From assembly GCA_964349095.1 (NCBI GenBank), contig CAYGFD010000001.1, forward strand, positions 13,867-56,580: 42,714 nt of DNA, read 5' to 3'. The position numbers were made by a program, and so were the translations under genes. Under the pieces are notes generated by a model. That model worked only from the letters and a program-made list of their open reading frames with translations, was not told the origin of the DNA and did no database searches. This DNA is from an uncultured Gammaproteobacteria bacterium (lineage in GTDB: Bacteria > Patescibacteriota > Patescibacteriia > Veblenbacterales > UBA10138). The stretch's first letter is position 1. Each line of letters begins with the position of its first letter. This document shows positions 4,700 to 42,714 of this stretch, in pieces.

Positions 4700-4969
4700 A
4701 TGCTGCGGTGGCGGTTTGTGCTTTCTGGCAGAGTACAAGGCGTTGGTTTGCGATACAGTTCTGCGCAAGTAGCGCGTCAACTTGGTTTGTCTGGTTGGGT
4801 AAAAAATATTGACGATAAGGTGGTCTTAGAGGTCGAGGGGTTTGAGGAAGCTCTGGAAAAGATGGAGAAATGGCTGAAAAAGGGAAAATGGTTTGCTAAA
4901 ATCACCAACCTTGATAAAATAGTATTGGCTCTAGAACATGACAATGGATTTAATATAAGGCTTAAGTGA
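4700..4969 (+). CDS. acyP: Acylphosphatase
   Basis: 89 aa with the acylphosphatase signatures GRVQGVGLRY and GWVKN. TGA stop at 4967-4969. Confidence 0.85.
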   Translation: MLRWRFVLSGRVQGVGLRYSSAQVARQLGLSGWVKNIDDKVVLEVEGFEEALEKMEKWLKKGKWFAKITNLDKIVLALEHDNGFNIRLK

Positions 4970-5421
4970 TGGAAATAATTTTTTTGCAAAATGTGGCAGG
5001 GGTGGGTAAGTCTGGTGAGGTAAAAAAAGTCAACGATGGATTTGCTTTAAATTATTTAATACCAAAACAACTTGCCGTCGCCGCCACACCGGAACGATTA
5101 AAAAAAATCGCTGATAATATCAAACACAGGGCTCATGAATCCAAGGAGCGAGAAAAGGAATTGCTGAAAATAATTAACAGGTTACAGAATCAGCAACTGA
5201 CAATAAAAAGTAAATCATCTACCGAAGGAACGCTTTATGCGGCCGTGGATGAGCAGAAAATTGCGGACGCAGTATTGAGTAGATTTGGCTTACCAGTGCC
5301 AATAAACAGTATTAAGTTGGACCAACATATTAAAAAAATAGGACAATACGATATATTATTAAAATTAACCTCTACACTTTCAACTAATTTCAAAATTAAA
5401 GTAGAAGCGGACAATGGCTAA
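4969..5421 (+). CDS. rplI: 50S ribosomal protein L9
   Basis: MEIIFLQNVAGVGKSGEVKKVNDGFALNYLIP is a typical L9 N-domain. I prefer ATG 4969 (TGATG overlap with the acyP stop) over the track's GTG at 4966. Confidence 0.9.
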   Translation: MEIIFLQNVAGVGKSGEVKKVNDGFALNYLIPKQLAVAATPERLKKIADNIKHRAHESKEREKELLKIINRLQNQQLTIKSKSSTEGTLYAAVDEQKIADAVLSRFGLPVPINSIKLDQHIKKIGQYDILLKLTSTLSTNFKIKVEADNG

Positions 5422-7048
5422 GACTAAATTCATATTTATTTCCGGAGGAGTAATGTCTTCAGTAGGCAAAGGTATTGCCGCCGCTTCGTTAGCTAAATTA
5501 TTACAAAGTAAAGGTTATAAGGTCTGCCCAGTAAAGTGCGAAAATTATTTGAATGTTGACGCGGGCACTATTCGTCCCACCGAGCACGGTGAGGTTTTTG
5601 TTTGCGATGATGGTATTGAAACAGATCAAGATATTGGTACTTATGAAAGGTTTTTAGATTTATCTTTGGCTAAAGATAATTTCATTACCATGGGTCAAAT
5701 ATACAAAACAGTTATAGATCGTGAACGATCTTTTGGGTATGAAGGTGAGGATGTTGAGGCAATCCCTCATTTATGTGATGAAATTATTAACCGTATAAAA
5801 AAGGCTGGCCAAAAAATGAAAGCCGATATCGTGGTCATTGAGTTGGGGGGGACGGCAGGCGAATACCAAAACGTTTTCTATTATGAGTCTTCACGTATTA
5901 TGAAATTACGTGATAAAGACAGTGTTTTGCACGTACATGTAGCCTATTTACCAACGCCACCAACAGTTGGAGAAATGAAATCAAAACCAGTACAGACATC
6001 AGTGCATATTTTAAATTCCATGGGTATACAGCCAGATTTCTTAATAGCACGGGCTCAAAAACCTTTGGATAAAAAGCGCAGTGAGCGATTAGCTATGTTT
6101 TGTAACATGGATAGTGGCGATATTATCTCTAATCCTGATTTGGATTCGGTCTATGATGTGGCACTGAAGTTTGATGAGCAGGATTTTGCTGATAAAATAT
6201 TAAAACGTTTTCATCAAAAACCGCGTGGCAAGGATTTGAAGGAGTGGCGCGCGTTGGCTGAGACTGTAAAATCTGTTGAGCAAGAGGTTCCGATTGCTAT
6301 GGTCGGTAAGTATTTTTCTACCGGCGATTATGTTTTATCCGATGTCTATGTTTCCGTGATCGAGTCGTTAAAACACGCCGGCTGGCATAACAACGTTAAA
6401 CCAAAGTTTTATTGGATTGATTCAGAAAAAATAGAAAGTGAGGGGGCGGCGAAATATTTAGATGGCATGGCTGGTATTGTGGTGCCGGGTGGTTTTGGTA
6501 GTAGAGGAATCGAGGGTATTATTCAGGCGGTAACTTATGCCCGAGAGAAAAATATTCCTTATCTTGGTTTGTGTTATGGTATGCAGTTGGCAACGATCGA
6601 GGTCGCGCGTAATTTATCTGGTTTAAAAGACGCTAATTCTGAAGAAATAAATTCAAAGACTAAGCATCCAGTGATCCATATTATGCCCGAGCAAGAAAAA
6701 AAGTTATTATCTAAGGACTATGGGGCGACTATGAGGCTGGGGGCTTGGGATTGTATTATTGAGAAGGGGACTAAAGCCTATCAAGCATATGGTGAGGTAA
6801 AAATATCGGAGCGCCATCGCCATCGTTATGAATTTAATAATGATTATCGTGGGCGTTTGGAAAAAGTTGGGTTAGTTATTTCTGGGACTTCTCCCGATGG
6901 GCATTTGGTAGAAATGGTGGAGCTGAAAAATCATCCATGGTTTGTGGGCGTGCAATTTCACCCAGAGTTCAAGTCTAGACCGTTAAGACCCCATCCATTA
7001 TTTAGGGACTTTATCAGTGCGGCAATAAAAGTGGTGCCAATAACTTAA
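5414..7048 (+). CDS. pyrG: CTP synthase
   Basis: FISGGVMSSVGKGI N-terminus, glutaminase domain with GLCYGMQ and HRHRYE motifs. Start overlaps the rplI stop. Confidence 0.97.
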   Translation: MAKTKFIFISGGVMSSVGKGIAAASLAKLLQSKGYKVCPVKCENYLNVDAGTIRPTEHGEVFVCDDGIETDQDIGTYERFLDLSLAKDNFITMGQIYKTVIDRERSFGYEGEDVEAIPHLCDEIINRIKKAGQKMKADIVVIELGGTAGEYQNVFYYESSRIMKLRDKDSVLHVHVAYLPTPPTVGEMKSKPVQTSVHILNSMGIQPDFLIARAQKPLDKKRSERLAMFCNMDSGDIISNPDLDSVYDVALKFDEQDFADKILKRFHQKPRGKDLKEWRALAETVKSVEQEVPIAMVGKYFSTGDYVLSDVYVSVIESLKHAGWHNNVKPKFYWIDSEKIESEGAAKYLDGMAGIVVPGGFGSRGIEGIIQAVTYAREKNIPYLGLCYGMQLATIEVARNLSGLKDANSEEINSKTKHPVIHIMPEQEKKLLSKDYGATMRLGAWDCIIEKGTKAYQAYGEVKISERHRHRYEFNNDYRGRLEKVGLVISGTSPDGHLVEMVELKNHPWFVGVQFHPEFKSRPLRPHPLFRDFISAAIKVVPIT

Positions 7049-18344: not shown

Positions 18345-18365
18345 TTAATATTTATATTTATTCAT

Positions 18366-18656
18366 ATGTCACAACAACAACCACAACAAATTCAAGTTAA
18401 GATTCCAGACGATGTTTTAAAAGGTGTGTATGCTAATCTGGTTCAAATTGCTCACACCAAAGAAGAATTCGTTTTAGACTTTGCTAACGTTATGCCTCCA
18501 CAAGGCATTGTCAATTCCCGAATTTATATTTCACCAGCTCATGCCAAAAGATTGGCTACAGCACTTCTTGATAATATAAAACGTTATGAGTCACAGTTTA
18601 ATAAAATAGAGGAGGGTTTAGCGACGGTACCAGAGGTTGGTTTTAAGACAGAATAA
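18366..18656 (+). CDS. DUF3467-like small protein
   Basis: GVYANLVQIAHTKEEFVLDFANVMPPQ ... ISPAHAKRLATALLDNIKRYESQF resembles the DUF3467 pattern as I remember it. Not verified by search. Confidence 0.6.
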   Translation: MSQQQPQQIQVKIPDDVLKGVYANLVQIAHTKEEFVLDFANVMPPQGIVNSRIYISPAHAKRLATALLDNIKRYESQFNKIEEGLATVPEVGFKTE

Positions 18657-18658
18657 CT

Positions 18659-18687
18659 TTGACAAACGGTTATATAAATTATAGCCT
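18659..18687 (+). promoter_or_regulatory. Putative promoter of a GC-rich cassette (TTGACA, -10 TATAGC/TAGCCT)
   Basis: TTGACA 18659-18664 begins 3 nt after the DUF3467 stop. The -10 is ambiguous (15- or 17-nt spacer). Confidence 0.4.
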
Positions 18688-18741
18688 TAAAGCAAATCGT
18701 TCTATTCATTTTCACTAGTATCACAACAATAGGAGCTGAAA

Positions 18742-18951
18742 ATGTCTCATTCTCCAGAGCAACCGTCCCTAGGTCGGGGATCATCTCCGACACCGAATCA
18801 ACAGCGGGAGATGTTTTCTCCCGAAGAAACCACTTTCCGCATTCGTCGCGGCAATGACGTCAAGAGCGGGTGTCGACATCCAGGTTTGTTGAGTGATGAA
18901 GCAATCAAAGCCGTCGTGCATGCGCAGAATGATAGTGATACTATCAAGTGA
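18742..18951 (+). CDS. Hypothetical protein (69 aa), GC-rich ORF between dnaK and dnaJ
   Basis: AGGAG SD at 18731-18735, 6 nt from the ATG. Own promoter-like box and downstream hairpin. I recognise no family. Confidence 0.5.
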   Translation: MSHSPEQPSLGRGSSPTPNQQREMFSPEETTFRIRRGNDVKSGCRHPGLLSDEAIKAVVHAQNDSDTIK

Positions 18952-18964
18952 AACACTTTCTCTA

Positions 18965-19004
18965 AGGCACAAACATTCTTTTTTGAATGCGCGTGCCTTT
19001 TAAT
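18965..19004 (+). terminator. Terminator-like hairpin
   Basis: AAGGCAC (18965-18971) / GTGCCTT (18994-19000), followed by TT-AATTT. The loop is large (22 nt). Confidence 0.45.
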
Positions 19005-19012
19005 TTAAAATC

Positions 19013-26372: not shown

Positions 26373-26837
26373 ATGCAAGATATTAGGAAAGAGTATAAAG
26401 GACGAGAGGTCACGATTCCAACAGGAGTAGAACAGTCAGAATTGAAGGAAGTTTTTCCAGATGCTCCTAAAGAAGCCGTGGATCAGAGAGTTGTTCCAGC
26501 GCCTCTACCAGTCGAGCCAGTTGCGAATATTAGTTCAAGTATATCCACCCCAGTTATAAGTGTTGATCCAATTCAAAAGAACGTGGAGAATATTTTACAG
26601 GAAGACATGTTGGATCTGTATAAAGAATTAAGTCCGATCGAACAACAACAGTTTAAAATAAAAGGTGAGGAAACCGCCAAAGCGATCAGCCAAATAGTTA
26701 GGGCAATGCAGGTAAAGATTCAAGACATCATAAATTTAATTAAAGATTGGTTAAAGGTGATACCGGGCGTTAAGAATTATTTTGTTGAGCAAGAGGCAAA
26801 AATAAAAGCGGAAAAAATATTAAAATTGCAAAAATAA
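26373..26837 (+). CDS. Hypothetical protein (154 aa, Pro-rich N-half, helical Lys/Glu-rich C-half)
   Basis: ORF with a consensus promoter. The stop overlaps the start of the next gene (ATAATG). I recognise no family. Confidence 0.6.
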   Translation: MQDIRKEYKGREVTIPTGVEQSELKEVFPDAPKEAVDQRVVPAPLPVEPVANISSSISTPVISVDPIQKNVENILQEDMLDLYKELSPIEQQQFKIKGEETAKAISQIVRAMQVKIQDIINLIKDWLKVIPGVKNYFVEQEAKIKAEKILKLQK

Positions 26838-29383
26838 TGAATGGGTTAGACTCGTCAACTCAATCTCTGAATAATTCTTTTATCGGATCGCCGTTAATGT
26901 GGTTGATAATTTTTTTGGTATTTGTTGTTGGAGTCATTGTTTTTCTTTTTATAATGAGAAGGTTAACTCGCAGGGTGTCACAAGTTGACCTAAGTTTGCA
27001 GATGCAGGCGCTGTTAATTACGGTACCTAAAGAGTCTTTTGGTTCAGACCAAGATAAATCATCGGGTCATCAGTTTATTGTTGAACAAATCGGTGTAGCA
27101 GAAGTGTTATGGTCAGCATTAGGGGGATTAAAGCCTGAGGGTGGGTTGAAGAATAAATTTAAAGTTAGGCAGGATCAAATATCTCTGGAAATAGTCCTTA
27201 AGGACGAAGTAATTTCTTTTTACGTAGTTGTACCGCCGGTTTTACGAAGTTTTATTGAACAACAAATTTTGTCTCATTATCCGCACGCAAATATTGAAGC
27301 GGTTGATGATTACAATATATTTCTAGCACGCGGTGCGGTCGCGGGCACATATTTAACATTTTCAAAGATGTCCGCTTTTCCTACCAGAACATTTAAGCAG
27401 TTGGAAGCCGATCCTTTAAATTCTATAACTAATTCCTTAAGTAAGATTCCAGCTGGCTCTGGCGCAGCAATTCAATTGGTTGTCCGATCTGCTAAATCAA
27501 GTTGGCGTAACGAGGGCGTCAGGATTGCTTCGGCGATGCAGCAGGGCAAAGCTTTAAATGAGGTTTCCCATGGCCAGGGTTTTGGAAAAATTGCCTCCGG
27601 CGCTTGGAAGTTAGGCAAAGAGATGTTTGGTTCTAGCACTAAAAAATCCGAAATTGAGAAAGCTAATAATAAATACCAACTGTCTCCTCTGGAGCAAGAG
27701 ATGATAAAGGGGATTGAAAATAAGGCTTCTAACGCTGGTTTGGACGTAAATATTCGCATCGTCACCGCCGCGCCCGATCAGGTATCTGCTGATCGGTACC
27801 TTTATGATATTGCCAATGCTTTTAATCAATTCAATGTTTATGAATACGGTAATAGTTATGTGGCAACCAAGCCGCATTCGCTGGATGATTTTATGACGGG
27901 TTTTATTCATCGCGAATTAAATGAAAGTAAAAAAATAGTTTTAAATACTGAAGAACTCGCGACGATCTATCATTTTCCGTTGCCATCTACTGAAACACCA
28001 AATATTAAGTGGCTAGGCGCTCGTCGAGCGGCCGCACCTGTAAATATGCCCGCTGCTGGTTTGCAATTAGGTATTAATTATTACCGAGGGCAGGAAGTTC
28101 CGGTCAAAATTAAAGATGATGATCGACGAAGACATGTCTATGTAATTGGTAAGTCTGGTACAGGTAAATCAGTTTTGTTGCAGAACATGATTGTGCAGGA
28201 TATTAAAGCTGGCCACGGTGTTGGTGTTATTGATCCGCACGGGGATTTAGTGGAAGGTATTTTGGAACAAGTACCGCCCGAGCGAGTTGACGATATAATT
28301 GTTTTTAACCCATCAGATGTCGAGCGACCAATGGGACTTAATATGCTTGAGTTTTCCGCTCCGGAGCAGATGGATTTTGCGGTTCAGGAAATGATTTCTA
28401 TTTTTTACAAATTATTTCCACCGGAAATGATTGGCCCAATGTTTGAACATAACATGAGAAATGTCATGTTAACCTTAATGGCTGATAAGGAATTCCCCGG
28501 CACGATTGCTGACATCCCACGCATGTTCACTGATAAAGAGTTTCAAAAGTATAAAGTGTCAAAATTGGGTGACCCAGTAGTTCGTGCTTTTTGGGAAAAG
28601 GAAATGGCGCAGACAACGGATTTTCACAAATCTGAAATGTTGGGTTATCTGATTTCCAAAGTTGGCAGGTTTGTTGAAAATGAAATGATGCGTAATATTA
28701 TCGGTCAACCAAAGTCAGGGTTTAATTTCCGAGAAGTTATGGATAATCAAAAGGTCGTTCTGGTTAATTTATCTAAAGGGACGACTGGTGAAGTAAATTC
28801 CTCGTTATTGGGATTGATAATTGTTTCAAAAATGCAGATGGCGGCAATGTCTCGTGCTAACTTGCCGGAATCAGAACGTAAGGATTTTTATTTATACATT
28901 GATGAGTTTCAAAACTTTATAACTGATTCCATAGCGACTATTTTATCTGAAGCAAGAAAGTACAGATTGGATTTAATAATTGCCAATCAATATCTTAAGC
29001 AATTAACTCAGGGTAATGACACTAAAATTAGGGATGCCGTTCTAGGAACGGTGGGCACATTAGTTAGTTTTAAAATTGGCGTTGAGGATGCTGAAGTATT
29101 GGCCAAGGAGTTTGAGCCTGTATTTAATGCCCACGATATTGTTAATATTGAGCAATATAACGCTTATGTTAAGCTTTTGGTTGATAACGCGCCGGCCAGA
29201 CCTTTTAATATGAGAACCTTACCACCAGGACGTGGAGACAAAAATATTGCTAAAAAAATTAAGGAATTATCAAGGCTTAAATATGGGAAAGCACGTGCCG
29301 AGGTACAGTCAGAAATAATGGAGAGAACAAGACTTGGTTCAGCAATCACTAAACAGGCGGTACCAACTGAGCGAACGCTATGA
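26837..29383 (+). CDS. Fused membrane-anchored N-module + VirD4/TraD-like (FtsK-HerA superfamily) P-loop NTPase, 848 aa
   Basis: TM helix LMWLIIFLVFVVGVIVFLFIM. The N-module is homologous to ORF 37331-38737. Walker A GKSGTGKS (nt 28149-28172), DPHGDL, Walker B FYLYIDEFQNF, LIIANQY sensor-like motif. The C-half aligns with ORF 38740-40515. Confidence 0.8.
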   Translation: MNGLDSSTQSLNNSFIGSPLMWLIIFLVFVVGVIVFLFIMRRLTRRVSQVDLSLQMQALLITVPKESFGSDQDKSSGHQFIVEQIGVAEVLWSALGGLKPEGGLKNKFKVRQDQISLEIVLKDEVISFYVVVPPVLRSFIEQQILSHYPHANIEAVDDYNIFLARGAVAGTYLTFSKMSAFPTRTFKQLEADPLNSITNSLSKIPAGSGAAIQLVVRSAKSSWRNEGVRIASAMQQGKALNEVSHGQGFGKIASGAWKLGKEMFGSSTKKSEIEKANNKYQLSPLEQEMIKGIENKASNAGLDVNIRIVTAAPDQVSADRYLYDIANAFNQFNVYEYGNSYVATKPHSLDDFMTGFIHRELNESKKIVLNTEELATIYHFPLPSTETPNIKWLGARRAAAPVNMPAAGLQLGINYYRGQEVPVKIKDDDRRRHVYVIGKSGTGKSVLLQNMIVQDIKAGHGVGVIDPHGDLVEGILEQVPPERVDDIIVFNPSDVERPMGLNMLEFSAPEQMDFAVQEMISIFYKLFPPEMIGPMFEHNMRNVMLTLMADKEFPGTIADIPRMFTDKEFQKYKVSKLGDPVVRAFWEKEMAQTTDFHKSEMLGYLISKVGRFVENEMMRNIIGQPKSGFNFREVMDNQKVVLVNLSKGTTGEVNSSLLGLIIVSKMQMAAMSRANLPESERKDFYLYIDEFQNFITDSIATILSEARKYRLDLIIANQYLKQLTQGNDTKIRDAVLGTVGTLVSFKIGVEDAEVLAKEFEPVFNAHDIVNIEQYNAYVKLLVDNAPARPFNMRTLPPGRGDKNIAKKIKELSRLKYGKARAEVQSEIMERTRLGSAITKQAVPTERTL

Positions 29384-29907
29384 TAATATTGCAACTTGTA
29401 TTTCTAATACTACTGCTGGTGGTATTAGGGAGTGTTGCTTTTGCAACTTTATCAGCGGCCCCTTGGGTTCCGCTACCAAAAAAAGACGTCCGGCGTATGG
29501 TGGCGCACGCCAACATTAAGCCAGGTGAAACGGTTTATGATTTAGGCTGTGGCGATGGCAGAGTACTAATTGAGGTTGCAAGAGCAATGAATGCAAAGGC
29601 TATTGGTTTTGAAATATCAATACTCATGTATGTAGTTGCCTTACTTAGGGTTTATTTATCTGGTCAGTCAAAGAACATTAAGATACACCTTAAAAATTTT
29701 TACAAAACAGACTTTAAAGAGGCCGATGTTATACTTTGTTTTTTAACACCCAATGCTATGCGTAATTTAAAGACCAAAGTCGAAAGTGAATTAAAATTCG
29801 GCGCCAGGTTTCTGAGTTACGTTTTTCCAATTAATGGCATAAAGCCTAAAGAGATATTTAAGGAACGCGAAACTGACGCAACTATATATTTATATTCTAC
29901 TGAATAA
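29380..29907 (+). CDS. Membrane-anchored class I SAM-dependent methyltransferase
   Basis: N-terminal TM (LQLVFLILLLVVLGSVAFATL), then APWVPLPKKDV...VYDLGCGDGRVLIEVA (motif I). ATGA overlap with the preceding gene. Confidence 0.8.
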   Translation: MIILQLVFLILLLVVLGSVAFATLSAAPWVPLPKKDVRRMVAHANIKPGETVYDLGCGDGRVLIEVARAMNAKAIGFEISILMYVVALLRVYLSGQSKNIKIHLKNFYKTDFKEADVILCFLTPNAMRNLKTKVESELKFGARFLSYVFPINGIKPKEIFKERETDATIYLYSTE

Positions 29908-36160: not shown

Positions 36161-36189
36161 TTGACATAAATGTCATAATATGATATAAT
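36161..36189 (+). promoter_or_regulatory. Consensus sigma-70 promoter (TTGACA-17-TATAAT), -10 box 10 nt from the ATG (leaderless candidate)
   Basis: TTGACA 36161-36166, 17-nt spacer, TATAAT 36184-36189, ATG 36200. No SD. Confidence 0.7.
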
Positions 36190-36199
36190 TAAGTGGTAT

Positions 36200-37321
36200 A
36201 TGAGTGCAGATCAAGGTTCAATTCTTGATAAAATCATTTCAACACAACAGTTTTCCAGAAAGGAACATTTTCGTCCCCAGGAGGTTCTGGCAGAAATAAT
36301 GCGAAGTTTGAATGAAAGAGAGGCGCAAGTTGTTATGCGCCGTTTTGGTTTACCCGATAATGAGCACGAAACTCTGGAAAGTGTTGGTAAAAGCTTCAAT
36401 ATTACTCGCGAAAGGGTAAGGCAGATAGAAAAGTTGGTCATAAATAAGATAAAAGCGAACGATAAGATGCAGGATCTGCTAAGTCCGGTACGAGCGGTTA
36501 TAGTGGAAACTTTAGAAACAGAAGGCGGGGCCATGACCGAGGATCATTTACTTAAGTCACTAAATGACACATCTTCCCAAGATGTTCCTAAAAATACCCT
36601 GTCGTTTTATTTGAACTTTTTACTTGATGATGTCGTTTCTAAAATTAGTGATGAAAATTTTTTGGATGCCTGGATGCTCAAGACCGCGTCGCTTGATGCT
36701 CTGAAAAACCTCAGCAATATTGCAAAAACAATATTGGAAAAAGCTAATCGACCACTATCCGACGAAATTTTATGGCATGAAATGTCCAAAGTAGGGAATT
36801 TATTATCTCCTCTAGGTGACGCGCTTACCGATGTTCGGGTGACGGTTTCGCTTTTGGAAATTTCTAATGATATTAAGCGTAATCCGTATGGTGAATGGGG
36901 GTTAACTGTTTGGGACACTATCACTCCTAAGCGAATGAGTGATAAAATATACTTAGTACTAAAGAAAAAGGGGAGCCCCTTACATTTTAGGGAAATTACC
37001 AATCTAATTAACGATCAAAAGTTTGATCATAAACAGGCGCACGCACCTACGGTGCACAACGAGTTGATTTTGGATAGTCGTTTTGTGTTGGTGGGTCGTG
37101 GAATCTACGCTTTATCAGAGTGGGGATACAAGCCCGGCGCAGTGGCGGATGTGATCGTTGAGATTATAAAGCAAAAAGGTCCGCTTACTAGAGACGAGGT
37201 TGTGACTGAAGTATTATCGCGTAGAGTTGTACAAGCTGGTACAATTCATTTAGCTCTAACTAACAAAAAAATATTTATAAGAAACGAGCAGGGTAAATAT
37301 ACTCTAGCTAATCAAAATTAA
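36200..37321 (+). CDS. Sigma-70 region-4-like HTH fused to HARE-HTH-type winged-helix repeat(s). No sigma region 2.
   Basis: LNEREAQVVMRRFGLPDNEHETLESVGKSFNITRERVRQIEKLVINKIK is sigma region 4.2-like. KIYLVLKKKGSPLHFREITNLIN...TVHNELILDSRFVLVGRGIYALSEWGY is HARE-HTH-like (RpoE-delta N-domain). Weaker similar repeats end in GEWGLTVW and GKYTLAN. Confidence 0.8.
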   Translation: MSADQGSILDKIISTQQFSRKEHFRPQEVLAEIMRSLNEREAQVVMRRFGLPDNEHETLESVGKSFNITRERVRQIEKLVINKIKANDKMQDLLSPVRAVIVETLETEGGAMTEDHLLKSLNDTSSQDVPKNTLSFYLNFLLDDVVSKISDENFLDAWMLKTASLDALKNLSNIAKTILEKANRPLSDEILWHEMSKVGNLLSPLGDALTDVRVTVSLLEISNDIKRNPYGEWGLTVWDTITPKRMSDKIYLVLKKKGSPLHFREITNLINDQKFDHKQAHAPTVHNELILDSRFVLVGRGIYALSEWGYKPGAVADVIVEIIKQKGPLTRDEVVTEVLSRRVVQAGTIHLALTNKKIFIRNEQGKYTLANQN

Positions 37322-37330
37322 AACTAAACT

Positions 37331-38737
37331 ATGGATTGGGAGGCAATCCGGATCTCAATTGAACAATTTACTAATTTAGGCCCTTTAGAACAGCAGTGGT
37401 GGATATTCACACACGGCGGTTGGGCGCTTATTTTATTTATTGGAGTTCCGTTGTGGCTAAAGGAAAGGTTAAGGAGAAAACGCATCGAGCATATCGAGCA
37501 TACTAAGTATGTTTTGTTAGCCTTGGACGTACCAAAAGGTACCGAACAATCACCGAAGGCTGTGGAAAGTATTTTTACTGCTTTGGCTGGTGCGCATAGT
37601 CATGGTAATTTAATTGAGCATTATTGGGATGGCCATGTTCAGGAGCCATTTAGTTTTGAAATAGCTTCTCTAGGCGGTTATATTCAATTTTTTGTTAGAA
37701 CCCCAGAACAATTTCGTGATCTGGTGGAGGCGGCAATTTATGCTCAGTATCCGGACGCTGAAATTATTGAGAGTGAGGACTACGTCGATCGTATTCCGTC
37801 TTTTTATGATACTGAAGAATTTGACTTGTGGGGAACGGAATTAACATTTACTAATAAAAATTATTTTCCCATTAGAACTTATCCGGAATTTGAGCACACC
37901 GCTAGTGAAGATTTTAAGGATCCAATGGCTGGTATTTTGGAAATATTATCGCGTGTTCATCCAGATGAGGATGTTTGGTTGCAATTTTTAGTGACGCCGA
38001 TAGAAGATGAGTGGAAAGAAGAGGGTTTAGCGGTAGTAGAAAAAATGGCTGGCGTCACACATGCAGCTCATAAACCAGGGGTAGCGGCGAGAATGGGCAG
38101 TGGTTTAGTGGAAACACTGAGGGTAATGGGACACTCATTAATACCTTATAATAAGGATGAGGAGACTCATACCACAGAGAAATCTACGACCAATGATAAA
38201 AGAGTAACGCCTGGGCAGAAAGTAATAATGGAAGCGATTGAGAAGAAAATTGCTAAAATTGGATTTAGAGTAAAACCTAGAATGATTTATTGGGGAAGGC
38301 GCGAAACTTTCACTAAGGGCAGAGGAGTAGCCGCAGTTATGGGAGCTATTCAACAATTTAATACTTTAAATTTAAATGGTTTTAAACCATCAAAATTGGT
38401 TACTACTAAAGCCAACTATTTTTTGGTTAAAAGTAGGATAACAAAACGTCAGAGAAAAGTTTTGATTGCTTATAAACGTCGTGACCCGTTTCGAGGTGCT
38501 GGGCCAGGGATTATTTTAAATACTGAAGAATTAGCAACGGTATTCCATTTCCCAGTCGCAACAGTTAAAGCACCGTTGGTGAGAAAAACCGAGTTGAAAA
38601 AGTCGGAGCCACCTTTTGCACTCCCTGTGTTTAGAAGTCAGGGTCGGGTGCAGGTAGACTCTCAAGTTAATAGAGGTGATGAACCTTCTCGAAAGACGGG
38701 TGGCGGATCACCAACTAATTTACCGATTATTGAATAA
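37331..38737 (+). CDS. Membrane-anchored N-module protein (468 aa), homologous to the N-half of ORF 26837-29383
   Basis: TM WWIFTHGGWALILFIGVPLWL. Shared blocks are FSFEIASLGGYIQFFVRTPEQFRDLVEAAIYAQYPDAEIIESEDY vs ISLEIVLKDEVISFYVVVPPVLRSFIEQQILSHYPHANIEAVDDY, and IILNTEELATVFHFPVATVKAP vs IVLNTEELATIYHFPLPSTETP. Confidence 0.75.
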   Translation: MDWEAIRISIEQFTNLGPLEQQWWIFTHGGWALILFIGVPLWLKERLRRKRIEHIEHTKYVLLALDVPKGTEQSPKAVESIFTALAGAHSHGNLIEHYWDGHVQEPFSFEIASLGGYIQFFVRTPEQFRDLVEAAIYAQYPDAEIIESEDYVDRIPSFYDTEEFDLWGTELTFTNKNYFPIRTYPEFEHTASEDFKDPMAGILEILSRVHPDEDVWLQFLVTPIEDEWKEEGLAVVEKMAGVTHAAHKPGVAARMGSGLVETLRVMGHSLIPYNKDEETHTTEKSTTNDKRVTPGQKVIMEAIEKKIAKIGFRVKPRMIYWGRRETFTKGRGVAAVMGAIQQFNTLNLNGFKPSKLVTTKANYFLVKSRITKRQRKVLIAYKRRDPFRGAGPGIILNTEELATVFHFPVATVKAPLVRKTELKKSEPPFALPVFRSQGRVQVDSQVNRGDEPSRKTGGGSPTNLPIIE

Positions 38738-38739
38738 TT

Positions 38740-40515
38740 ATGGCAGTAGTAGACAAACAAAACGATATCGTACCGTTTGCGCAGACTAGTTTTCGCAACC
38801 ATAATGTTAAGTTTGGAATTAAACTCGATGATCGTCGTCGACATGTTTATATAGTTGGTAAGACTGGTATGGGAAAGACCGTAGTTTTGGAAAACATGAT
38901 TACGGCCGATATTCGAAATGGACACGGGTTAGCGGTAGTAGATCCACACGGCGATTTAGTGCAAAAAATTCTTGAAACTATTCCAGCCCATCGCATTAAC
39001 GATGTTATTTATTTCAATCCGTCAGATATTGATTACCCTGTTGCTTTCAACGTTTTAGAGCAAGTGGATCCTCGTTACCGTCACTTGGTAGCGTCTGGTC
39101 TGGTTGGTGTCTTTAAGAAAATTTGGGCAGATTCCTGGGGGCCGCGACTGGAGTACATATTGAGAAATGCCATTTTATCGTTATTGGAATATCCCAGCTC
39201 AACTTTGCTAGGTATCACCAGAATTTTAGTAGATAAAAAATATAGAAAGAAAGTTTTGGAACAGGTTACCGATCCGGTTGTTCGGTCGTTTTGGCTAGAC
39301 GAGTATGAGAACTACAATGAGAAATTTAGAGTTGAGGCAGTATCGCCAATCCAGAATAAGATAGGACAATTTTTATCGTCATCAATTATTAGAAATATTG
39401 TCGGTCAGCCCAAATCAACGCTCGATGTTAGAGATATAATGGATAATGAAAAAATACTTCTACTGGACTTGGCTAAGGGAAAGATCGGTGAAGATAACGC
39501 TTCGCTACTGGGAGCTATGATGATAACCAAGATGCAACTGGCCGCGATGAGTAGAATTGATATACCAGAAATGGAAAGAAAGGATTTCTTCCTATACGTT
39601 GATGAGTTCCAAAACTTTATAACAGATTCTTTTGCCAATATTTTATCGGAGGCGCGAAAATATCGCCTTAACTTAATTATGGCTCATCAATACATCGAGC
39701 AACTGGGCGATGTAGTAAAGGCCGCGGTATTTGGTAACGTCGGGACAATTATTTGTTTTAGAATCGGGGCTGAAGACGCGGAGTTTTTGGAAAAAGAATT
39801 TGAGCCCATATTCATGCAGAATGATTTAGTTAACTTGCCGAAGTTTCATGTTTATTTGAAATTAATGATTGATGGAATTACTTCTGACCCATTTAGCGCT
39901 AACACTCTTCCGCCTGTCGCGCAGTTGACTGGCAATAAAGCAAAAGTAATAAAAGTTTCTCGGGAACGCTATAGTAATAAGAGGGAAGAGGTTGAGGAAA
40001 AAATATTGCGATGGTCTGGTGTGGAGGATGTCTTTAAAGCCACGGCCCATCAGGAGAGTAAAAGCATTCCAGATGAGGATAAGATGTTTAAGTCCGCTCC
40101 AGCTAGAAAAAAAACAGAAAATAAAGAGTCGGAAGATTTGTTTGAGAGTCAGTGTTGGGTTTGTGGAAAAAAAGTTATGTTACCTTTTGAGCCTGATGGT
40201 GTGCGTCCGGTATATTGCAAGGAAGATATAAAGAAGGTGCGGCAGGGTCTGATTCCTAAACCAAAACCGCCATTGCAAGTAAAATCGCATCAAGTCGAGA
40301 AGCAGATTGTGGAGGATCAGGTAAAGCCGGTTAGCATCCCGCACGATGTAATAGTAAGGGATACAGGACCGTCGGTTTCATTGCAGGAGTTATTAAAAAA
40401 AGCCCAACCACGCCATGAGACTAAGAATATTTCTCAGTCGCCTCAGCCGATTTTAGCTGAGTCGTCTGACACTAGTTTAAGTAGCTTAAAGCCCGGGCAG
40501 GTAGTTCGTTTTTAA
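38740..40515 (+). CDS. VirD4/TraD-like (FtsK-HerA superfamily) P-loop NTPase (591 aa) with a Lys/Pro-rich, Cys-motif C-terminal tail
   Basis: DDRRRHVYIVGKTGMGKT (Walker A, nt 38858-38881), DPHGDL, FFLYVDEFQNF (Walker B), LIMAHQY. Long collinear similarity to the C-half of ORF 26837-29383. Tail CWVCGKKVMLPFEPDGVRPVYC. Confidence 0.85.
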   Translation: MAVVDKQNDIVPFAQTSFRNHNVKFGIKLDDRRRHVYIVGKTGMGKTVVLENMITADIRNGHGLAVVDPHGDLVQKILETIPAHRINDVIYFNPSDIDYPVAFNVLEQVDPRYRHLVASGLVGVFKKIWADSWGPRLEYILRNAILSLLEYPSSTLLGITRILVDKKYRKKVLEQVTDPVVRSFWLDEYENYNEKFRVEAVSPIQNKIGQFLSSSIIRNIVGQPKSTLDVRDIMDNEKILLLDLAKGKIGEDNASLLGAMMITKMQLAAMSRIDIPEMERKDFFLYVDEFQNFITDSFANILSEARKYRLNLIMAHQYIEQLGDVVKAAVFGNVGTIICFRIGAEDAEFLEKEFEPIFMQNDLVNLPKFHVYLKLMIDGITSDPFSANTLPPVAQLTGNKAKVIKVSRERYSNKREEVEEKILRWSGVEDVFKATAHQESKSIPDEDKMFKSAPARKKTENKESEDLFESQCWVCGKKVMLPFEPDGVRPVYCKEDIKKVRQGLIPKPKPPLQVKSHQVEKQIVEDQVKPVSIPHDVIVRDTGPSVSLQELLKKAQPRHETKNISQSPQPILAESSDTSLSSLKPGQVVRF

Positions 40516-40516
40516 T

Positions 40517-41443
40517 ATGAATAAAATTATCAAAAATATTTCAAGTATAAAAGTTCAGGGCGCAACCAAGGTGGCGTTCACATCTTTATTACTGGTCAAA
40601 AATTCTTTAAGAAAATTATCGTGGCCGCCTCAAAAAAAATCTTTTGATCTGGTTGCTGACCAGGCAGGCCTGATTGGTAGATTGCGATCTACTGAACCAC
40701 TGACGAGAAATTTAATCCGCTGGTTATTGCTTGAGGCCTTTACCATCTACAAGAAAAACAATAATCGAGAAAATTTTAATAAATATTTGAACGCGCTATA
40801 TAACAGGGCGATTGGACATTATGCCGATGTCGAAGATAGTATTGTTCGAACGGCTTTAAAAAAGATAAATGATGGTGATAATGTTTTTACGCATTGCCAC
40901 TCCAGTTTAGTTGAGAAGATATTAATCGCGGCTAAGCAATCTGGAAAAAAAATTACCGTGTATCATACAGAAACCAGACCTTTATTTCAAGGGAGGATTA
41001 CCGAGAAAAATTTGCGTAAGGCTGGTGTTAAGTCATTCATGGTTGCAGATTCAGCTGCCGCTTATTTAGTATCCAAGCACTCGGGTGACGATATTAGTAT
41101 TGATTTGGTTGTCTTGGGCGCAGACGCCCTCTTGGCTGATGGCAGTGTTATTAACAAGATTGGTAGTTTTGGTATCGCACTGGCTGCGTATGACTCTAAA
41201 ATACCAGTTTATGTTGCAAGTAGTTTGTTAAAGTTTGATATAGATTCCACAACTAAAATTGAAATGAGGAGTTCGGGGGAGATTTGGCCAAACCATCCTA
41301 GTAAAACACGTATTTTAAATTATGCCTTTGACCGCATCCCTGCTAAAATGATTACAGAAATTATTTGTGAAAACGGGGCTGTAAAGCCTAAATCGATTTC
41401 TAAATTAGCTAAAAAACAATATGCGAAATTATTTAATTATTAA
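40517..41443 (+). CDS. eIF-2B alpha/beta/delta-family isomerase, probable ribose-1,5-bisphosphate isomerase
   Basis: eIF-2B-family fold motifs (VFTHCHSS with Cys, VVLGADALLADGSVINKIGS with Asp). Size is about 308 aa and it lies next to RuBisCO. The start is 1 nt after the upstream stop. Confidence 0.8.
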   Translation: MNKIIKNISSIKVQGATKVAFTSLLLVKNSLRKLSWPPQKKSFDLVADQAGLIGRLRSTEPLTRNLIRWLLLEAFTIYKKNNNRENFNKYLNALYNRAIGHYADVEDSIVRTALKKINDGDNVFTHCHSSLVEKILIAAKQSGKKITVYHTETRPLFQGRITEKNLRKAGVKSFMVADSAAAYLVSKHSGDDISIDLVVLGADALLADGSVINKIGSFGIALAAYDSKIPVYVASSLLKFDIDSTTKIEMRSSGEIWPNHPSKTRILNYAFDRIPAKMITEIICENGAVKPKSISKLAKKQYAKLFNY

Positions 41444-41452
41444 TCCATCGCT

Positions 41453-41860
41453 ATGTCACTAAAGATGAAAACTGCTGAAAAATTGAATATCGTTAGAGGT
41501 CAGCCACGACTTAGAAAGATGTGGTATACATACATAACGCTTGTCAGTATAAACATTATTTTGGTTTTAATTAATTTATCAAACCATTACTTCAGTAGCC
41601 TTAAAGATGCTGACAATTCAGAAAAATTGATATTTGCAATCTTGGCTTTGCTTGTGCTGACTTGGTTAATTATTGTCCTTATAGGTGCGTACAGATTGAG
41701 CCGTTGGGTAGGTATTTTTTACATACTTGGATTATTGGAGGCTATAGGGAATTTTAATATTTTAGCAATAATATTTACAGGTTTAGTAATTTATTTTTAT
41801 TATTATATTTCTAATAAAGTTGAGTTACTTGGAAATACACCAGTTACAAGTAAGTCGTAA
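41453..41860 (+). CDS. Hypothetical membrane protein (135 aa, 3-4 TM)
   Basis: Hydrophobic profile. Sits between the isomerase and RuBisCO genes. Confidence 0.5.
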   Translation: MSLKMKTAEKLNIVRGQPRLRKMWYTYITLVSINIILVLINLSNHYFSSLKDADNSEKLIFAILALLVLTWLIIVLIGAYRLSRWVGIFYILGLLEAIGNFNILAIIFTGLVIYFYYYISNKVELLGNTPVTSKS

Positions 41861-41905
41861 TTTATCCTAAAGTCTTGACTCTGTTTAAAAATTATTTAAT
41901 TAAAT

Positions 41906-42714
41906 ATGGCCGTACAACTAAATTATATTGCCCCAGATGGGTGGCAACCAAAAAACCCAGACGAAGATTACGTTATCGCCCAGTTTAAAATACAGCTCGC
42001 AGCTGGTATTCCCGATAACGTATTTTTAGATGCCGCTGCATCTGTGGCCGCTGAATCCTCAACCGGGACCTGGACCAAGGTAGAATCAAGGCCGGATTCT
42101 GGGATGAAAACCGCAGAAGAATATAAAGCGGTTGTATTTGATGTTGATAGAAAAAACCACATGTTCAAAGTGGCCTACAGAACCGATTTATTTGAACCAG
42201 GAAATATATCTGGATTTTTGGCAGGGCCGGCGGGAAATATTGCCGGAATGAAAATGGTGCAGGGCTTGAGATTATTTGATGTTCGTTTTCCACGCTCACT
42301 GGTAGAGTCATTTCCTGGGCCACGTTTTGGTATAGCCGGACTTAGAGATATGCTGGGCAGCAAGAATCGCTGGCCAATTATGGGTACAGTTCCTAAACCT
42401 AAGGTGGGTAGGTCGGCAACCGAGCAAGCGATGTTAGCAAGACGTATGTGGCAGGCCGGTGACGGTACTTATGAATTTATTAAGGATGATGAAAATTTAA
42501 CCAGCTTACCTTTTAATAAATTTGAAGATCGTACGCGACAAATATTAGATGTGCAGCGTGAGATTGAGCAGGCGAGTGGAAATAAAAAATTATATTTATG
42601 TAATTTAACGCACTCCAACATCGATATTATGATGGATCGGGCAAACTTGATTAAAGAAAATGGCGGTCGGGTAATGATGATCGATGTTGTTACAACTGGC
42701 ATGGCGGCCGTTCA
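41906..42714 (+). CDS. rbcL: RuBisCO large subunit, form II/III or III-like (5' partial, runs off the window, so absent from the ORF track)
   Basis: My translation from ATG 41906 is MAVQLNYIAPDG...AAESSTGTWT...GNISGF...GTVPKPKVGRS...FIKDDENLTS...LYLCNLT. It has the RuBisCO N-domain motif, the KPK catalytic lysines and the KDDE carbamylation/metal motif. The frame is open to 42714. Confidence 0.9.
   Translation, partial: MAVQLNYIAPDGWQPKNPDEDYVIAQFKIQLAAGIPDNVFLDAAASVAAESSTGTWTKVESRPDSGMKTAEEYKAVVFDVDRKNHMFKVAYRTDLFEPGNISGFLAGPAGNIAGMKMVQGLRLFDVRFPRSLVESFPGPRFGIAGLRDMLGSKNRWPIMGTVPKPKVGRSATEQAMLARRMWQAGDGTYEFIKDDENLTSLPFNKFEDRTRQILDVQREIEQASGNKKLYLCNLTHSNIDIMMDRANLIKENGGRVMMIDVVTTGMAAV

Follow-up and report, generated by a model that had tools for sequence, protein, structure and literature searches.

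Gene clusters of the CO2-incorporating adenosine monophosphate (AMP) pathway, also called the pentose-bisphosphate pathway, reportedly go back to work by Sato in 2007. In archaea and in candidate phyla radiation (CPR) bacteria, such clusters are made up of deoA, encoding AMP phosphorylase, e2b2, encoding ribose-1,5-bisphosphate (R15P) isomerase, and a form III, III-like or II/III RuBisCO gene. Both the AMP pathway of CPR bacteria (PMC5113843, PMC6389311) and the orphan type IV coupling protein (T4CP) homologues of Patescibacteria (PMC12102498) are already known. Patescibacteria carry about two VirD4-like T4CP copies per genome, unlinked to virB4; from a total of 5,713 homologues in 2,918 genomes, 148 lie near virB4 and the rest have no assigned function (PMC12102498). 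Patescibacteria cannot make nucleotides de novo, how these are obtained is an acknowledged open question, and comEC is dispensable in the one genetically tractable species (PMC12102498). Here we describe a 42,714-nucleotide (nt) stretch of contig CAYGFD010000001.1 (assembly GCA_964349095.1), referred to as the window, which ends in a six-gene array. Three genes encoding a sigma-70 region 4/HARE-HTH protein, a DUF8128 protein and a TrwB-fold ATPase (together the trio) are followed by genes for a putative R15P isomerase, a small membrane protein and RuBisCO. This adjacency of trio and AMP-pathway genes is conserved in related genomes, yet not beyond the background synteny of the region.

Like other Patescibacteria with their orphan T4CPs, the window holds two copies of the ATPase family. 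The array ATPase resembles T4CPs (TrwB, VirD4, TraD, TraG) in its P-loop nucleotide-binding domain (NBD) with Walker A and B motifs, TrwB being its best structural match, and its AlphaFold2 (AF2) model alone places a helical insertion where T4CPs carry an all-alpha domain. It differs from T4CPs in several respects: the ATPase chain has no transmembrane segment, the hydrophobic helix being located on the separate DUF8128 protein; its tail bears a zinc ribbon; it is partnered with a sigma-region-4/HARE-HTH protein; and it scores far below all T4CP equivalog cutoffs. In addition, no VirB4, relaxase or type IV secretion system (T4SS) domain was found in the open reading frames (ORFs) of the window or in related loci. 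HerA and FtsK translocases share the ASCE/FtsK-HerA superfamily fold with the ATPase, HerA being the second-ranked match family, and there is a weak NCBIfam match to CedD of the archaeal Ced DNA-import system (3.8e-07). Pairing of a translocase with a nuclease, as in HerA-NurA, is a known design, and in some lineages the gene behind the ATPase encodes an exonuclease or a PHP protein. However, the likeness to HerA/FtsK, known here from sequence and model, is at the superfamily level only, and the window ATPase has no NurA or Mre11/Rad50 partner.

On the pathway side, the window RuBisCO is of the CPR form III-like type. The cluster differs from known AMP clusters in lacking a strong promoter of its own and in its place behind a T4CP-like ATPase module, from which just 1 nt separates it; moreover, in close relatives of the window a HAD hydrolase gene is located between RuBisCO and deoA. 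A T4CP-like neighbour of the AMP cluster is not mentioned in PMC5113843 or PMC6389311, and in the searchable literature we found no description of the three-gene module, its conserved promoter, its variable 3′ position or its linkage to e2b2 and deoA.

We lean towards reading the array as inherited synteny of two modules with read-through co-transcription, and not as one dedicated machine. The trio is a Patescibacteria-wide unit, taken to be ancient, with its own near-consensus promoter, and the content of the slot directly 3′ of the ATPase varies between lineages. In the window's clade (clade A of the ATPase tree), this slot holds AMP/pentose-bisphosphate genes; only in the window's sub-clade is a form III-like RuBisCO gene inserted between those for isomerase and AMP phosphorylase. 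Inherited placement with promoter sharing fits the data at least as well as functional coupling does, because most trios lack AMP genes, ATPase-free AMP clusters exist, RuBisCO is not a conserved partner and unrelated flanking genes are just as syntenic.

Clade-wide linkage of the trio and AMP genes, and its limits

The features of the array, and the second ATPase copy outside it, are as follows.

36161..36189, + strand: sigma-70-type promoter, TTGACA, 17-nt spacer, extended -10 TG, TATAAT; 12/12 match
36200..37321, + strand: gene 1, DNA-binding protein of 373 amino acids (aa); Sigma70_r4 (3.6e-13) and HARE-HTH (2.7e-09) in Pfam/NCBIfam
37331..38737, + strand: gene 2, 468-aa DUF8128 protein; orthologues precomputed as PF26449
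38740..40515, + strand: gene 3, 591-aa TrwB/VirD4-fold P-loop ATPase; TrwB_AAD_bind, DUF87, TraG-D_C
40517..41443, + strand: gene 4, putative R15P isomerase (e2b2, IF-2B family), 308 aa; IF-2B 2.8e-52
41453..41860, + strand: 135-aa hydrophobic ORF, predicted membrane protein; no Pfam/NCBIfam match
41906..42714, + strand: large subunit of a form III-like RuBisCO, first 269 aa, truncated where the window stops; RuBisCO_large_N and catalytic domain
26837..29383, + strand: fused DUF8128-ATPase paralogue outside the array, 848 aa; by alignment to genes 2 and 3

The trio was kept in every sampled neighbourhood (L001-L008, in order of falling ATPase identity), and the genes behind it differed. In L001 and L002 (74-76% ATPase identity) it is followed by isomerase-(x)-RuBisCO-HAD-AMP phosphorylase-ferredoxin, in L003 (71%) by isomerase-AMP phosphorylase without RuBisCO, in L004/L005 (67%) by the same ferredoxin/CAP block without AMP genes, and in L006-L008 (57-61%) by unrelated genes. 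Orthologues of the isomerase gene are found at the equivalent place in L001, L002, L003, L010, L011 and L169. This ATPase-isomerase junction is kept throughout the clade (66-76% ATPase identity), with gaps of -8 to +6 nt and the AMP phosphorylase gene further downstream; the 8-nt overlap of ATPase and e2b2 is found in L169. Genomes of the GW2011_GWD2_43_10 type (66% ATPase identity) likewise carry isomerase and AMP phosphorylase genes behind the ATPase, the isomerase gene overlapping that of the ATPase by 8 nt, and the RuBisCO gene of GW2011_GWD2_43_10 stands alone on another contig (L013). When clade A was dereplicated, the order ATPase>e2b2>(RuBisCO)>AMP phosphorylase>(DUF5671)>ferredoxin was found in 7/10 loci. 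The remaining three (L004, L089, L090) retain the ferredoxin gene and miss the AMP genes, which looks like deletion of AMP genes from a fixed position.

Furthermore, we inspected 80 additional ATPase loci from metagenomes (54-72% identity). AMP genes directly 3′ of the ATPase were found in three of them, namely isomerase and a RuBisCO of a different group in L096, and AMP phosphorylase in both L119 and L135. Together with L169, these loci led us to reject the idea that the adjacency is a one-off accident of this genome. Moreover, for at least 17 of the 31 best AMP phosphorylase homologues, the longest contig is equal in size to that of one of the top 120 ATPase homologues, which suggests that linked loci are far more numerous in this clade. 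The preliminary description of this stretch had made its proposal depend on conservation of the gene order in related genomes. The adjacency is indeed conserved in relatives, with ATPase, isomerase and AMP phosphorylase kept together across the clade, but most trios (56/65 dereplicated loci) have no AMP genes.

The linkage was also viewed from the pathway side, in 80 RuBisCO-centred loci from species-dereplicated genomes. The trio was found upstream only in the three loci with the closest RuBisCO (at least 83% identity to that of L002). In the next ten form III-like loci, from Veblen-, Kerfeld- and Gottesmanbacteria and GW2011_GWD2_43_10, the trio, isomerase and AMP phosphorylase were all absent within 10 kb. 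RuBisCO, which the preliminary description had named as a partner in the array, is therefore not the conserved partner of the ATPase: it stands alone in 10/13 of the closest RuBisCO loci and is missing from the site in L003 and L169, where only e2b2 and the AMP phosphorylase gene are present. This corrects the picture of a RuBisCO operon, with isomerase and AMP phosphorylase as the stable pair and RuBisCO as the mobile member. Published phylogenies of RuBisCO conflict with those of the e2b2 and deoA genes (PMC5113843, PMC6389311), and the shifting position of RuBisCO with respect to these two genes seen here agrees with that conflict (Wrighton 2016, PMC5113843; Jaffe 2019, PMC6389311).

Three divergent AMP phosphorylases were sampled blind, from Kuenenbacteria (L173), Falkowbacteria (L174) and a third locus (L175). 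The first two belong to isomerase-RuBisCO-phosphorylase clusters with no ATPase nearby. In both clusters, a beta-CASP/RMMBL ribonuclease-like gene precedes the isomerase gene, adjacent to it in L174 (3307-4776) and three small genes away in L173 (1-352); the best NCBIfam models for the L174 protein are Cas14 and aCPSF1, both under their cutoffs. This beta-CASP/AMP cluster is a more direct adjacency of nuclease and salvage genes than the ATPase one. In L175, a 738-aa fused DUF8128-ATPase of another paralogue group divergently adjoins the isomerase gene. The same paralogue group is found 1-2 kb from a gene for form II/III RuBisCO at three Peribacteria-like loci, with Fur and DoxX-like genes in between. 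As a chance estimate for L059, L061, L065 and L175, we took ~2 T4CP-like genes per genome (PMC12102498) and an assumed genome size of ~1 Mb. One or two independent lineages in ~36 RuBisCO and 3 AMP phosphorylase loci are not clearly above this expectation, and the divergent paralogue near RuBisCO was not retained as support for a link.

The surroundings of the trio are themselves conserved. In clades B and C, the backbone reads secD-secF, the trio, a variable position and then GT2-DivIC, and in clade A the variable position is followed by DUF5671-ferredoxin instead. In clades B and C, the genes between ATPase and GT2-DivIC encode DUF1361 (15 loci), PHP (8), RNase_T (5), a phosphoribosyltransferase (PRTase; 1), AMP phosphorylase (L119) or isomerase and RuBisCO (L096). 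For 65 dereplicated loci, we tallied which gene comes directly behind the ATPase. It encodes GT2 in 17/65, DUF1361 in 15/65, PHP in 8/65, IF-2B in 7/65, DnaQ-like RNase_T in 5/65, AMP phosphorylase in 2/65 and PRTase in 1/65; in 10/65 it belongs to another family or has no Pfam match. The AMP genes thus occupy a position whose content varies by lineage, and they are present in 8/57 of the loci that have at least 2.5 kb downstream. The secD/secF genes are located upstream of the trio in 9/22 testable loci, in all clades and at 54-71% ATPase identity. Long-range synteny around the trio is the rule, since secDF is at least as deeply syntenic, and synteny is by itself no sign of shared function. 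The argument that adjacency proves coupling was therefore rejected; in addition to the equally deep secDF synteny, the transcription unit also carries DUF5671 and ferredoxin genes.

Several observations weigh against inherited placement as the whole explanation. The linkage recurs, which suggests more than a single accident: the slot 3′ of the ATPase holds AMP genes in clade A, in L096/L119 of clade B and in L135, which are separate regions of the tree, and the linked loci carry two different RuBisCO groups. The tree, onto which the downstream gene content was mapped, is a rough neighbour-joining (NJ) phylogeny of the ATPase, which leaves counts of independent events uncertain. Moreover, members of a second ATPase paralogue group are divergent neighbours of RuBisCO clusters, directly adjoining in L175 and at a distance of 1-2 kb in Peribacteria, the gaps of -8 to +6 nt between ATPase and e2b2 suggest translational coupling, and the DnaQ-like exonuclease, PHP and PRTase neighbours are plausibly nucleic-acid or nucleotide enzymes.

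The same observations speak for functional coupling, the link that the preliminary description had proposed and that we consider possible but unlikely. In the generalised form considered here, the trio would be a translocase for uptake or processing of nucleic acid, and the enzymes co-expressed with it would break down the cargo or catabolise the nucleotides released from it (AMP phosphorylase, R15P isomerase and RuBisCO, and in other lineages exonucleases, PHP phosphoesterases and PRTase), feeding imported nucleic acid into glycolysis. In clade A, the linkage is kept with stop and start codons overlapping or nearly so, and 23/65 of the first downstream genes are related to nucleotides or nucleic acids (IF-2B 7, AMP phosphorylase 2, PHP 8, RNase_T 5, PRTase 1). 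The modelled ATPase fold appears to be that of DNA-translocating T4CP and HerA proteins. Patescibacteria T4CPs are unlinked to virB4 and perhaps exapted, and an alternative route for nucleotides is expected in Patescibacteria because comEC is not essential in S. epibionticum (PMC12102498). However, the ATPase family is near-universal in CPR and the AMP pathway patchy, and RuBisCO genes of CPR are mostly solitary. Phylogenetically, the counts are not independent of each other, with PHP and RNase_T each occupying one to three subclades, and the category 'nucleotide-related' was set after the data had been seen. The PHP protein has no NCBIfam or PDB sequence match and is not firmly counted as a nuclease, and the RNase_T protein is similar to the proofreading subunit DnaQ. 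Furthermore, the conserved flanks secDF, GT2 and DivIC point to envelope and division rather than to salvage, and a T4CP homologue is reported to be non-essential in S. epibionticum (PMC12102498).

A broader form of this idea, which we hold to be rather less probable still, would make the trio a CPR-wide motor for nucleic-acid import or processing. Its 3′ position would serve as a docking site for cargo-processing enzymes, either exonucleases/PHP phosphoesterases or AMP phosphorylase, R15P isomerase and RuBisCO, and the system would provide the missing route for nucleotides and ribose carbon. If the linkage is functional, it would provide a specific candidate, open to experiment, for how CPR bacteria scavenge nucleic acid. 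The analysis places a VirD4-like ATPase in a conserved, strongly promoted three-gene module, with nucleotide- or nucleic-acid-related enzymes repeatedly filling the slot behind it and, in one sizeable clade, AMP-salvage genes embedded in the predicted transcription unit of the module. Even as mere inherited synteny, this arrangement would explain how the promoter-less AMP genes of this clade are expressed.

Transcription signals along the array

The promoter at 36161-36189 is the sole perfect (12/12) sigma-70 site on both strands of the 42.7-kb window, in which three sites, including this one, score at least 11/12 on either strand. It is followed by six + strand ORFs that span 36200-42714 and are separated by 9, 2, 1, 9 and 45 nt. 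No convincing terminator was found between the genes by pattern scan and RNAfold. A terminator-like match at 40494-40508 was discarded: its stem of 5 pairs, two of them G-U, lies within the last ATPase codons and is absent from the minimum free energy fold of RNAfold. The preliminary description had reported six same-strand genes with these gaps behind one consensus promoter, and no terminator hairpin between them; the ORFs and the promoter scan agree with it in every point, and no credible hairpin was seen at any junction. The 1-nt gaps are not special in this window, since rplI (ribosomal protein L9) and pyrG (CTP synthase), which are functionally unrelated, overlap by 8 nt (window 4966-7048).

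A site of the form TTGACA-17-(TG)TATAAT, with 11-12/12 matches, was found upstream of the gene 1 orthologue in 8/8 loci (56-100% ATPase identity). In the window, its -10 element stops 10 nt short of the gene 1 ATG, and mRNA starting from it may be leaderless. The distance between the -10 element and this ATG is 10-11 nt in the window (36161-36202) and in L002 (7443-7485), and 28-68 nt in other lineages. The -35 element TTGACA ahead of gene 1 is invariant in all eight lineages. In type, the gene 1 domain is nearly the same as the TTGACA-reading region 4 of primary sigma factors, and autoregulation of gene 1 through competition at the -35 element is conceivable.

Judged from these signals, the trio and the AMP genes would be co-transcribed. 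The AMP genes would probably be expressed via read-through from the trio promoter, because neither a strong promoter nor a terminator stands in front of them. Their transcript would be long and heterogeneous, running on in relatives through DUF5671 and a ferredoxin gene. In clade A, neither a near-consensus internal promoter nor a convincing terminator was found between the trio and the AMP genes. In L169, a terminator after secF is followed by a 12/12 promoter and then by no + strand promoter of at least 10/12 until past the ferredoxin gene. L002 resembles L169, with no + strand promoter of at least 10/12 from the trio promoter to the end of the ferredoxin/SDR gene.

Alternatively, the AMP genes could be expressed independently from weak or non-canonical promoters, the short gaps being a result of genome compaction and the array not one operon. 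In the window, RuBisCO is preceded at a distance of ~100 nt by a promoter-like site that scores 10/12 (41774-41803), a score reached in ~4% of random windows of 150 nt. In L001, L002 and L010, a 9-10/12 site is kept 49-51 nt ahead of the AMP phosphorylase gene. The L096 isomerase gene has its own 10/12 promoter (TTTAAA-17-TG-TATAAT), 6 nt before its ATG and within a 35-nt gap. However, no promoter-like site above 9/12 was found in the 250 nt upstream of e2b2 in clade A loci (by a pattern scan, which may miss non-canonical signals). Together with the terminator-free junction, the 8-nt overlap of ATPase and e2b2 in L169 and the lack of further promoters in L169 and L002, this makes independent expression an improbable explanation in our view, and read-through from the trio promoter is preferred. 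The 'operon-like' reading of the preliminary description is thus probably right for this clade as far as these signals go, with the qualification that a 10/12 site precedes RuBisCO.

Proteins of the trio and the fused paralogue

The domain identities proposed in the preliminary description were upheld by Pfam and NCBIfam, for gene 2 through its DUF8128 orthologues. In the gene 1 protein, sigma-70 region 4 covers aa 27-92 and HARE-HTH aa 245-308. In the PDB, its sequence matches primary sigma factors in their region 4 (1tty, for example, at 1e-11), over aa 27-92 only. Sigma region 2 was not detected with Pfam and NCBIfam, and every sigma equivalog stayed far under its cutoff. Gene 1 is therefore regarded as encoding a DNA-binding protein and not a sigma factor, since region 4 is present without region 2. 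An orthologue of gene 1 lies directly upstream of DUF8128 in most split-type loci.

Gene 2 has no match in the local Pfam copy. Its product starts with a region that holds a hydrophobic helix (about aa 23-43), bears a conserved EELA..HFP motif at the C-terminal end, and shares 24% identity (2e-24) with the fused 848-aa paralogue of the window over aa 27-405 of the latter. From this alignment, we take gene 2 to encode the detached N-module of the ATPase. The DUF8128 family has 2,031 representatives at 50% identity; a PDB profile search with it gave only noise (E 0.9 or worse), and no paper on it was found in the searchable literature. A structure model built from two DUF8128 sequences was discarded, as its predicted local distance difference test (pLDDT) score was 35.

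The gene 3 ATPase carries Walker A GKTGMGKT and Walker B DEFQ, and its NBD starts at about aa 20. It matches PF10412 (2.5e-11), PF02534 and PF12696, with domain-level cutoffs met. Its tail is disordered, with a CxxC-x17-CxxC zinc ribbon (aa 467-495). In the AF2 model (pLDDT 79.9), eight helices are inserted at aa 111-235 between core strands. When this model was searched with Foldseek, all top matches were TrwB (E 1e-13, target TM 0.61-0.66, ~420 columns), and HerA, Cagbeta and DotL ranked behind. Gene 3 has at least 8,000 homologues, all from Patescibacteria among the matches listed.

The fused 848-aa paralogue is 47% identical to the 591-aa ATPase over its aa 416-828 (3e-135), and because it aligns to both genes 2 and 3 these two are considered one functional unit. 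In the tree, it belongs to a paralogue group of its own, which is neither the split type nor the fused type of ~740 aa. A 154-aa ORF without family match ends 1 nt into its gene (window 26373-29907), and a SAM-methyltransferase gene (29380-29907) overlaps it by 4 nt. The fused-ATPase/methyltransferase/dnaX arrangement is also found in L002. In L091 (5082-15214), a split-type trio is followed ~3 kb downstream, on the same strand, by a fused 839-aa DUF8128-ATPase paralogue.

As inferred from its fold, the trio would most likely form an NTP-driven hexamer that is anchored in the membrane, translocates nucleic acid (or protein) and has its N-module split off. One ATPase subclade (63-64% identity to the window ATPase) has no DUF8128 or HTH gene detectable upstream, even with a custom hidden Markov model (HMM); it comprises L105, L108, L113-L115, L121, L122, L125, L128, L130, L133, L139, L144, L153, L154 and related loci. 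In place of these genes it has a ~240-aa gene followed by a gap of ~300-420 nt, and this gene may encode an alternative N-module.

The likeness to TrwB also raises the question of whether the ATPase is the T4SS coupling protein of a conjugative or mobile element that was integrated beside the AMP genes by chance. It has Pfam and NCBIfam matches to TrwB, TraD, TraG and VirD4 models and a TrwB-like fold, but all family-specific models are far under their cutoffs (TIGR03743 51.5 vs 366; NF045973 40.1 vs 250). No VirB4, relaxase, integrase or other T4SS gene was found among the window ORFs. The window is an ordinary Patescibacteria chromosome with housekeeping genes (rplI, pyrG, hrcA-grpE-dnaK-dnaJ, cysS, dnaX, tRNA-Gln), ~40% GC and uniform skew, and across CPR the trio is chromosomal and syntenic with secDF. 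Furthermore, only 148/5,713 Patescibacteria T4CP homologues lie near virB4 (PMC12102498). A mobile-element origin is effectively refuted by the gene content and composition of the window, and we give it hardly any credence.

AMP-pathway genes and further observations

The isomerase gene starts 1 nt past the ATPase stop codon. Its product has TIGR00511 (ribulose_e2b2) as best NCBIfam model, with a score of 158 against a cutoff of 314. Its five best solved relatives are R15P isomerases (5yfj, 3a11; about 5e-30), and MtnA ranks behind them. The RuBisCO/deoA context supports the assignment of gene 4 as a putative R15P isomerase.

The RuBisCO fragment contains both catalytic motifs, GTVPKPKVG (PKPK) and FIKDDENL (KDDE), with the Lys, Asp and Glu residues of a bona fide enzyme. 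It is 77% identical to the 484-aa enzyme of L002, its top PDB matches are archaeal form III enzymes, and its homologues carry the source name 'Form III-like'. The best NCBIfam model, TIGR03326 (rubisco_III), stays under its cutoff because the gene is truncated. AMP phosphorylase, which the preliminary description had raised as a possible further gene of the contig, was found in all full-length relatives, downstream in L001, L002, L003, L010, L011 and L169. The gene is very probably present on the source contig too, beyond the window end.

The 135-aa ORF between isomerase and RuBisCO genes lies in the kilobase of lowest GC in the window (41001-42000; 0.346 vs about 0.40). In L001 and L010, its slot is occupied by an unrelated ~275-aa gene, and in L002 by nothing. 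Within the AMP cluster, the interval between isomerase and RuBisCO forms a short site of variable content. No homologue of the ORF was found by tblastn across related loci, and it was rejected as a pathway member for this reason.

A HAD-family hydrolase gene lies between the RuBisCO and AMP phosphorylase genes in L001 (6704-7330), L002 (14252-14878) and L010 (7668-8288), and is absent in L011. Its weak NCBIfam matches include pyrimidine nucleotidases, ribulose-1,5-bisphosphate 5-phosphatase and phosphoglycolate phosphatase. Other genes related to nucleotides are found within or beside RuBisCO clusters of CPR as well. In L175 (6424-7136), PNPOx-like and MazG-like nucleoside triphosphate (NTP) pyrophosphohydrolase genes are located between RuBisCO and AMP phosphorylase. 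In the Peribacteria-like loci (L059 11363-12319), a DHH/DHHA1 (NrnA-like) phosphoesterase gene directly follows RuBisCO.

Elsewhere in the window, no ORF of at least 110 aa was found between dnaK and dnaJ (18345-19012, 668 nt), where the Jacksonbacteria-type L006 has a 98-aa DUF3467 gene. Among the sampled loci, several metagenome-assembled genomes (MAGs) titled 'uncultured Gammaproteobacteria bacterium' (L010, L016, L021, L069) carry CPR-type loci, e.g. the trio with a form III-like RuBisCO, and these MAGs are probably mislabelled in the public record.

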